Positions 16,420-18,384 of a stretch of 64,000 bases of DNA are shown here, piece by piece. How positions within the stretch are numbered: the first letter of the stretch is position 1; every line of letters starts with the position of its first letter. The notes under the pieces are model-generated. The model had not been told where the DNA came from and searched no databases. It saw only the letters and a list, made by a program, of their open reading frames with translations. Both the position numbers and the translations under genes were made by a program. The stretch comes from Escherichia coli (lineage in GTDB: Bacteria; Pseudomonadota; Gammaproteobacteria; Enterobacterales; Enterobacteriaceae): assembly GCF_003334335.1 (NCBI RefSeq), contig NZ_QOWQ01000028.1. One strand, given 5' to 3'.

Positions 16420-16638
16420 CTACATAGCGTGTTGATTATAATAGGGCACGCCGAGCGCATCCGACTTATCACTGCCAGTACCCATGTGATTTAAATCAAA
16501 CGGTGGGTGTTCCTGCGATGGGGGAACAACCACGACATTGGCACAAGAAGTAACAACTGGCTGCGTGGTTTGTTCCGCAACGCCCTGCGCGGAAAAGAGA
16601 ATAAGCGCAGCTGCTATTGCGGATGAAAGTGGTTTCAT
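16420..16638 (-). CDS. marB: Periplasmic MarB protein of the mar operon
   Basis: 72 aa ORF with signal peptide, last gene of the marRAB operon. Confidence 0.9.
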   Translation of the reverse strand: MKPLSSAIAAALILFSAQGVAEQTTQPVVTSCANVVVVPPSQEHPPFDLNHMGTGSDKSDALGVPYYNQHAM

Positions 16639-16669
16639 GATTGCCTCAGTGACGTTGTCACGTTTTCAA

Positions 16670-17053
16670 CTAGCTGTTGTAATGATTTAATGGATGTAAA
16701 AAGCGCGATTCGCCCTGCATATTGGTCATCCGGTATTTATGCGGCGGAACATCAAAGTAATTTTTGAAGGTTCGGGTCAGAGTTTGTTGCGACTCGAAGC
16801 CATATCGTTCTGCCAGATAGAGTATCGGCTCGTTACTTTCCTTCAGCTTTTGCGCGATTTCCGTCATCTTACGGCTGCGGATGTATTGGCCTAATGAATG
16901 ACCGGTTTCTTTTTTAAACATCCGTTGCAGGTGCCATTTGGAGTAACCCGAACGCTCTGACACTTTCTCCAGTGACAGTGGCGATTCCAGGTTGTCCTCG
17001 ATCCAGTCCAAAATGCTATGAATGGTAATAGCGTCAGTATTGCGTCTGGACAT
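16670..17053 (-). CDS. marA: AraC/XylS-family transcriptional activator MarA
   Basis: 127 aa from [31 protein letters not shown]...; GAGG RBS before this Met; the ORF track starts 17 codons further upstream. Confidence 0.9.
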
Positions 17054-17072
17054 CGTCATACCTCTTTTTTGT

Positions 17073-17507
17073 TTACGGCAGGACTTTCTTAAGCAAATAC
17101 TCAAGTGTTGCCACTTCGTCCGCCGTCAGGTTTTTTGTTAATTCTTGGTGCAGGTCCTGGCCAACTAATTGATGGCATTGTTCACATATTGCCGCGCCGC
17201 CGGTGGTAAGTTTTACCAGTACGCCGCGCTTGTCATTCGGGTTCGGCAACCTTTCCACCCAGCCTTTACAGACCAGGCGATCCAGCATACGGGTCAGTGC
17301 TCCCAGGTCGACCGACAATACCTTTTTCAGTTCAACCGGAGTAATACACGCCGCGCAGCGGATAGAGCAGAGCACCTTAAACTGTGCCGCGGTAATATCC
17401 AGCGGAGACAGATACTCGTTAAGCAGGCGATCTTTCTTCTGATTAACCATATGGATTAAGCGACCCAATGGAATAATTTCATTGAACAGATCGCTGGTAC
17501 TTTTCAC
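17073..17507 (-). CDS. marR: MarR-family repressor of the mar operon (GTG start)
   Basis: 144 aa [24 protein letters not shown]...; the start codon in the sequence is GTG. Confidence 0.9.
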
Positions 17508-17718
17508 ATTAGTTGCCCTGGCAAGTAATTAGTTGCAGGGGATAATATTGCCCAGGCAAGTATAAGTCAAATGAATGAATTGACCGATGCCACGTTTTGC
17601 TAAATCGGTTCAAGTTTTGTTCAATGCGATGCAAGGCTAGCTAAAGAGTGACACTTTATCCTTGTTTACCCCTTATACTTTTCGCTGATAACCCAGATAC
17701 ACAGGATAACAACCACCA
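17508..17718. promoter_or_regulatory. marO operator-promoter: two MarR palindromes and a marbox, in the divergent marR/marC intergenic region
   Basis: TTGCCctgGCAA at 17513-17524, TTGCCcagGCAA at 17548-17559, marbox-like GATGCCACGTTTTGCTAAATC at 17586-17606. Confidence 0.8.
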
Positions 17719-18384
17719 ATGTTAGATTTGTTTAAAGCAATTGGCCTGGGGCTGGTGGTGTTGCTGCCGTTAGCTAACCCATTAACAACTGTCGCGTTAT
17801 TTCTTGGCCTGGCAGGCAACATGAACAGTGCCGAACGTAATCGTCAGTCGTTGATGGCCTCGGTGTACGTATTTGCCATCATGATGGTGGCGTATTACGC
17901 CGGGCAACTGGTGATGGATACATTTGGCATTTCGATTCCCGGTCTGCGAATTGCAGGCGGCTTAATCGTCGCGTTTATCGGTTTTCGGATGCTCTTTCCG
18001 CAACAGAAAGCGATTGATTCACCGGAGGCGAAAAGCAAGTCGGAAGAGCTGGAAGATGAACCCAGTGCCAATATTGCCTTTGTGCCGCTGGCAATGCCAA
18101 GTACTGCCGGTCCGGGAACCATAGCGATGATTATTAGCTCGGCGTCCACAGTGCGTCAGAGTTCAACCTTCGCTGATTGGGTACTGATGGTTGCGCCGCC
18201 GCTGATCTTTTTCCTGGTGGCGGTTATTTTGTGGGGAAGCCTACGCAGCTCCGGCGCAATTATGCGGCTGGTGGGCAAGGGTGGCATTGAAGCGATCTCC
18301 CGTCTGATGGGATTCCTGCTGGTATGTATGGGTGTGCAGTTTATTATTAACGGCATCCTGGAAATCATTAAAACGTACCATTAA
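17719..18384 (+). CDS. marC: MarC-family inner membrane protein
   Basis: 221 aa multi-TM ORF divergent from marRAB. Confidence 0.9.

Follow-up and report, generated by a model that had tools for sequence, protein, structure and literature searches.

The Escherichia coli mar locus and its control region in a 64-kb window: a sequence identical to the K-12 reference

The marRAB control region of Escherichia coli is among the best-studied bacterial regulatory regions, and marR has been treated as a "gold standard" promoter and regulatory region (bioRxiv 10.1101/2020.01.18.910323). Downstream of the marbox the MarR dimer occupies two sites, site I between the -35 and -10 elements and site II close to the start of translation (PMC3920692), and on the upstream side of the marbox marO is bound by Fis (PMC7355843). 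Translation of marR starts weakly, from a GTG codon with a poor Shine-Dalgarno sequence, which keeps output of the repressor small in comparison with MarA (PMC5086920). One recurrent Mar mutation consists of a 20-bp duplication of TACTTGCCAGGGCAACTAAT at K-12 position 1619120 (PMC8757474), and a "20 bp duplication in operator" is listed also in PMC3920692. The MarR polymorphisms G103S, Y137H and K62R have been reported without association with resistance (PMC4317672).

The locus described here lies in a 64-kb stretch of DNA, the whole of which is called the window. Positions 16300-18500 are 100% identical over 2201 bp to E. coli K-12 MG1655, and likewise to C600, J53 and many further genomes; when the whole window was compared by BLAST with the MG1655 record NZ_CP032667.1, the segment 15026-20376 showed no differences. 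The mar locus was found in 5424 of the 5426 complete E. coli genomes. RefSeq names marB, marA, marR and marC at exactly the positions of the four intact ORFs of the locus, each of whose products scores above its NCBIfam equivalog cut-off, with eamA and ydeE flanking the locus at one end, ydeA (sotB) and yneK at the other. Scanned against Rfam, the window as a whole yielded no RNA family within the locus. The original prediction, made from the sequence alone, had recognized the E. coli mar locus, a reading now supported by the K-12 identity, the RefSeq names and the NCBIfam scores; its assignment of marRAB to the minus strand and marC to the plus strand, and its GTG start for marR, agree with ORF reading and RefSeq, and the three operon genes that it called intact, marR, marA and marB, are so. 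From gene identities, coordinates, motif positions and K-12 identity, we regard it as almost certain that this is the wild-type E. coli mar locus in its K-12 reference allele, and no observation spoke against this. It is an already known, textbook case, with nothing in it to surprise a specialist, and its importance is for annotation only, as an unmutated reference allele. Coordinates are collected in Table 1.

Table 1. Features of the mar locus, in window coordinates.
Feature	Position	Strand	Description
G+C-rich hairpin	16392-16411	-	GGCCCCGA-CAUC-UCGGGGCU; RNA fold
marB	16420-16638	-	72 aa; intact ORF; RefSeq WP_000803657.1, same coordinates
marA	16670-17053	-	127 aa, AraC/XylS-family activator; intact ORF, RefSeq
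marR	17073-17507	-	144 aa, GTG start, winged-helix repressor; intact ORF, RefSeq
MarR site II	17507-17527	-	21-bp repeat unit TACTTGCCAGGGCAACTAATG; palindrome TTGCC-AG-GGCAA 17513-17524
marO	17508-17718		211-bp divergent marC-marRAB control region
marRAB core promoter	17542-17570	-	-35 TTGACT 17570-17565, 17-nt spacer, -10 TATTAT 17547-17542
MarR site I	17542-17562	-	21-bp repeat unit TACTTGCCTGGGCAATATTAT; palindrome TTGCC-TG-GGCAA 17548-17559
marbox (MarA/SoxS/Rob site)	17586-17606	-	GATTTAGCAAAACGTGGCATC on the marRAB strand
marC	17719-18384	+	221 aa, inner-membrane NAAT-family protein, divergent; intact ORF, RefSeq

The product of marR matches NCBIfam model NF008565 over residues 1-144 of 144 with 319.3 bits (cut-off 240), and its residues 2-144 are identical, residue for residue, to PDB entry 3voe_A, with further structure matches to 5h3r and 1jgs; the winged-helix dimer fold is predicted from this identity to solved structures. 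At positions 62, 80, 103 and 137 it carries Lys, Cys, Gly and Tyr (K62, C80, G103, Y137), the K-12 reference residues. MarA scores 294.3 bits against NF008564 (cut-off 202) and 288.5 bits against NF012198 (cut-off 250), and in full length matches residues 3-129 of PDB entry 1bl0_A; the 129-aa form that was crystallized begins at an in-frame ATG at 17059, two codons upstream of the start in Table 1. As a single-domain protein of about 127 aa with two helix-turn-helix motifs, scoring above the equivalog cut-off, it falls within the MarA/SoxS/Rob subgroup. MarB, product of the third gene of marRAB, scores 141.9 bits against NF007508 (cut-off 87), and its N-terminus resembles a signal peptide. The divergent gene encodes MarC (NAAT; UPF0056), which matches NF008228 in full length with 376.6 bits (cut-off 162).

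The 30-bp gap between the convergent stop codons of marB and eamA is occupied by a G+C-rich hairpin with a folding energy of -16.1 kcal/mol (z = -3.56), which none of 200 shuffled sequences equaled. A strict scan for intrinsic terminators called none in 16300-18500, the hairpin being missed because its U-tract is weak. By its placement it is probably a bidirectional terminator shared by the marRAB and eamA transcripts.

The control region between marR and marC measures exactly the 211 bp first given for it, and all mapped operator elements sit in its marR-proximal part of about 100 bp. The marRAB promoter is the best sigma-70-like site of the region, with 10 of 12 matches. The motif TTGCC-N2-GGCAA occurs exactly twice in the 64-kb window, where 0.15 occurrences are expected, and one shuffled sequence in 100 reaches two; both copies lie in marO, 35 bp apart from start to start and embedded in a 15-nt direct repeat. 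The original prediction was thus right about two palindromes and wrong about their spacer, which it had given as three nucleotides: TTGCC-N3-GGCAA has no match anywhere in the window. With the 21-bp site units taken as the direct-repeat units delimited in this analysis, site I occupies the spacer between -35 and -10 and takes in the -10 hexamer, and site II lies between the -10 and the GTG of marR, spanning the weak ribosome-binding region. The suggestion that this GTG (17507-17505) overlaps the proximal MarR site did not survive closer reading, for the site II palindrome abuts the start codon, stopping 5 bp upstream of it, and the 21-bp unit touches only the G, which is its last base. This layout agrees with the published arrangement of MarR sites and marbox (PMC3920692). 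It is that of autoregulation by MarR through palindromic sites overlapping its own promoter, with binding predicted at both.

The predicted marbox, also part of the first reading, was found 15 bp upstream of the -35. As ATGCCACGTTTTGCTAAATC at 17587-17606 on the plus strand it agrees with the consensus AYnGCACnnWnnRYYAAAYn at 13 of the 14 specified positions, and the consensus therefore reads in the "backward" orientation relative to marRAB. A 20-bp asymmetric marbox upstream of the -35 of the gene's own promoter is the arrangement of MarA autoactivation. It is the identity to the K-12 marbox, a site defined by experiment, that gives this predicted site its significance, and not the consensus alone, because the degenerate consensus with at most one mismatch occurs in the window at chance level (two matches, 1.69 expected). 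For the same reason the other match, ATAGCACTAATTGCTAAAA at 38251-38269 on the minus strand, with one mismatch, between lsrK and an autotransporter pseudogene, is probably meaningless. The Fis site reported for marO would fall, as we infer its position, at about 17609-17630. A 15-nt stretch in this same region, CAAGTTTTGTTCAAT at 17611-17625, shares 80% identity with the marbox core CACGTTTTGCTAAAT (17591-17605), from which it is displaced upstream by exactly 20 bp; it may represent a second, degenerate marbox or a chance similarity.

Five marO alleles, picked at even steps down the ranking of E. coli sequences by identity (98.1-100%), were aligned. They agree completely at the marbox, both promoter hexamers (-35 and -10), both MarR sites and the GTG. 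Eight columns vary: six upstream of the marbox, one between marbox and -35, and one between sites I and II.

What such a locus would do can be carried over, for binding, repression and induction alike, from the established literature on exactly the same sequence. The operon marRAB, on the minus strand, would be transcribed from the sigma-70 promoter and kept repressed by MarR dimers on the two TTGCC-N2-GGCAA palindromes, where MarR on site I, between -35 and -10, would block RNA polymerase; site II lies between the -10 and the marR GTG. Inducers (salicylate, other ligands, oxidants and copper-mediated oxidation) would release MarR, and MarA, SoxS or Rob, bound at the marbox just upstream of the -35 and helped by Fis, would then activate marRAB. 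MarA in turn would switch on the mar regulon, acrAB-tolC, micF and others among it; MarB, small and exported, would modulate the expression of marA, and marC would be a divergent membrane-protein gene using the same intergenic region.

Two alternatives to a functional, wild-type control region were weighed against this account. The palindromes and marbox might be chance motifs of an ordinary intergenic region, devoid of regulatory meaning, and the chance-level count of marbox-consensus matches, one of which is the unrelated site at 38251-38269, is what such a reading would lead one to expect. The 12-bp palindrome, found twice at more than ten times its expected number, is against it, as are the spacing of the two copies within a direct repeat that brackets the -10 of the best promoter, the invariance of the operator elements across divergent E. 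coli alleles at which flanking positions vary, and the identity of the whole to the experimentally studied K-12 operator; chance retains a vanishingly small probability. Alternatively, a mutation in marR or marO might have left a derepressed Mar allele, with constitutive MarA and efflux-mediated multidrug resistance, since mutations in these two elements, missense and frameshift changes and the 20-bp duplication among them, are common in selected and clinical isolates (PMC8757474, PMC3920692). Comparison of marR and marO with the wild type for derepressing substitutions, the check proposed at the outset, gave a clean negative: there are no differences from K-12, none of the known derepressing changes looked for in marR and marO is present, and neither marR nor site I or II carries a disrupting change. 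The duplication unit maps exactly to window 17527-17508, next to the GTG whose first base, 17507, is by coordinate mapping K-12 position 1619120, and this 20-mer of site II stands in single copy. MarR is identical to the crystallized wild-type protein, and even the neutral polymorphisms G103S, Y137H and K62R are all absent from the window's allele. A derepressed allele is hence refuted at the level of sequence, its likelihood close to nil, and a Mar phenotype would have to come from a trans-acting cause outside the window. Because nothing in the locus differs from K-12, normal repression and inducibility are predicted for it, as opposed to the constitutive state of a Mar mutant, and the source strain is not predicted to show mar-mediated constitutive multidrug resistance.

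The remaining alternative concerns marC, which might belong functionally to the resistance system: co-regulated from marO, it would contribute to the Mar phenotype, and the four genes would form one functional unit. Its divergent transcription from the same 211-bp region, and its very name, taken from the mar locus, favor this. Set against it are the present NCBIfam name of the product, simply a NAAT-family transporter, and a 786-bp toxin-antitoxin cassette that splits marC from the marRAB control elements in 373 of the 5426 complete genomes, which argues against a required tight regulatory coupling. The gene shares the control region yet is not known to be needed for the resistance phenotype; McDermott and colleagues, in 2008, reportedly found it to have no involvement in multiple antibiotic resistance. 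We consider a functional role for marC in resistance improbable; the gene is counted into the mar locus by historical naming and not by demonstrated function.

The cassette itself was seen in E. coli B strain C3029, where a RelE/ParE-family toxin and a helix-turn-helix antitoxin (positions 1715-2500 of the C3029 locus, L008) replace 63 bp corresponding to window 17638-17700. Genomes with the cassette, E. coli B and E. coli C included, always hold it as a single chromosomal copy, and the breakpoint in C3029 falls immediately upstream of the block presumed to hold the Fis site and marbox; the intergenic region of the window, 211 bp long and free of the cassette, is of the common type. That the marC-distal 63 bp of marO are a recurrent point of replacement, at which the cassette (about 7% of genomes) might alter regulation of marRAB or marC, is a speculative and improbable proposal. 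If true, the window would show, in its "empty" allelic form, a regulatory polymorphism apparently undiscussed in the mar literature examined.

Several observations were made elsewhere in the window. Its first 1551 positions have no alignment to the K-12 Qin-prophage region, and the adjoining 1552-4267 (tail-fibre, tfaQ and pinQ region) differs from K-12 by about 58 SNPs over some 2.7 kb. Positions 1-6000 are 100% identical to other strains, for example GDSC2BY4G and CFS3292, in which the region is annotated with host specificity protein J/TipJ tail tip protein, an indication that the lambdoid prophage at the site is more complete. Within the prophage tail-fibre-assembly (tfaQ) region, 2086-2284 on the plus strand is a full-length match to Rfam family IS009 (221 bits). 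A second full-length Rfam match, to the Hfq-binding sRNA STnc560 (281 bits), lies at 13679-13892 on the plus strand, where dgcZ and mgtS flank it and the small mgtT ORF runs antisense to it; we take it to be the MgrR sRNA locus. In the region 13782-13981 (minus strand) mgtT itself is intact in the window as a 34-aa ORF, whereas in NZ_CP032667.1 one extra T in a T-run leaves it annotated as frameshifted, probably an error or a variant in that record. Position 7 of MgtS is Ala in the window and Val in NZ_CP032667.1, through a SNP at 13962. At 38541-43960 on the plus strand, a large autotransporter gene of the ECSE_1600 family, a pseudogene in K-12, is likewise broken into two ORFs (1302 and 516 aa) that overlap; two 1-bp indels, at 42370 and 42493, set it apart from the MG1655 record, and it is still frameshifted.

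Among described systems, the mar loci of E. coli B and E. coli C encode the same MarC, MarR, MarA and MarB proteins as the window and have a marR-proximal operator 99.5% identical to it over the aligned block (window 17637-16300), but carry the 786-bp cassette where the window has 17638-17700. The common clinical, non-K-12 marR allele shares the same locus and operator core; it encodes G103S and Y137H, with or without K62R, where the MarR of the window has G103, Y137 and K62. The closest system is K-12 itself, whose marRAB, marO and divergent marC (b1529-b1532) have the same sequence across the entire locus. Differences from MG1655 are confined to the window outside 15026-20376, where about 25 SNPs or indels occur and the prophage end (1-1551) is a different one; within the locus, gene order, the GTG start of marR, the two MarR sites, the promoter and the marbox are all those of K-12.
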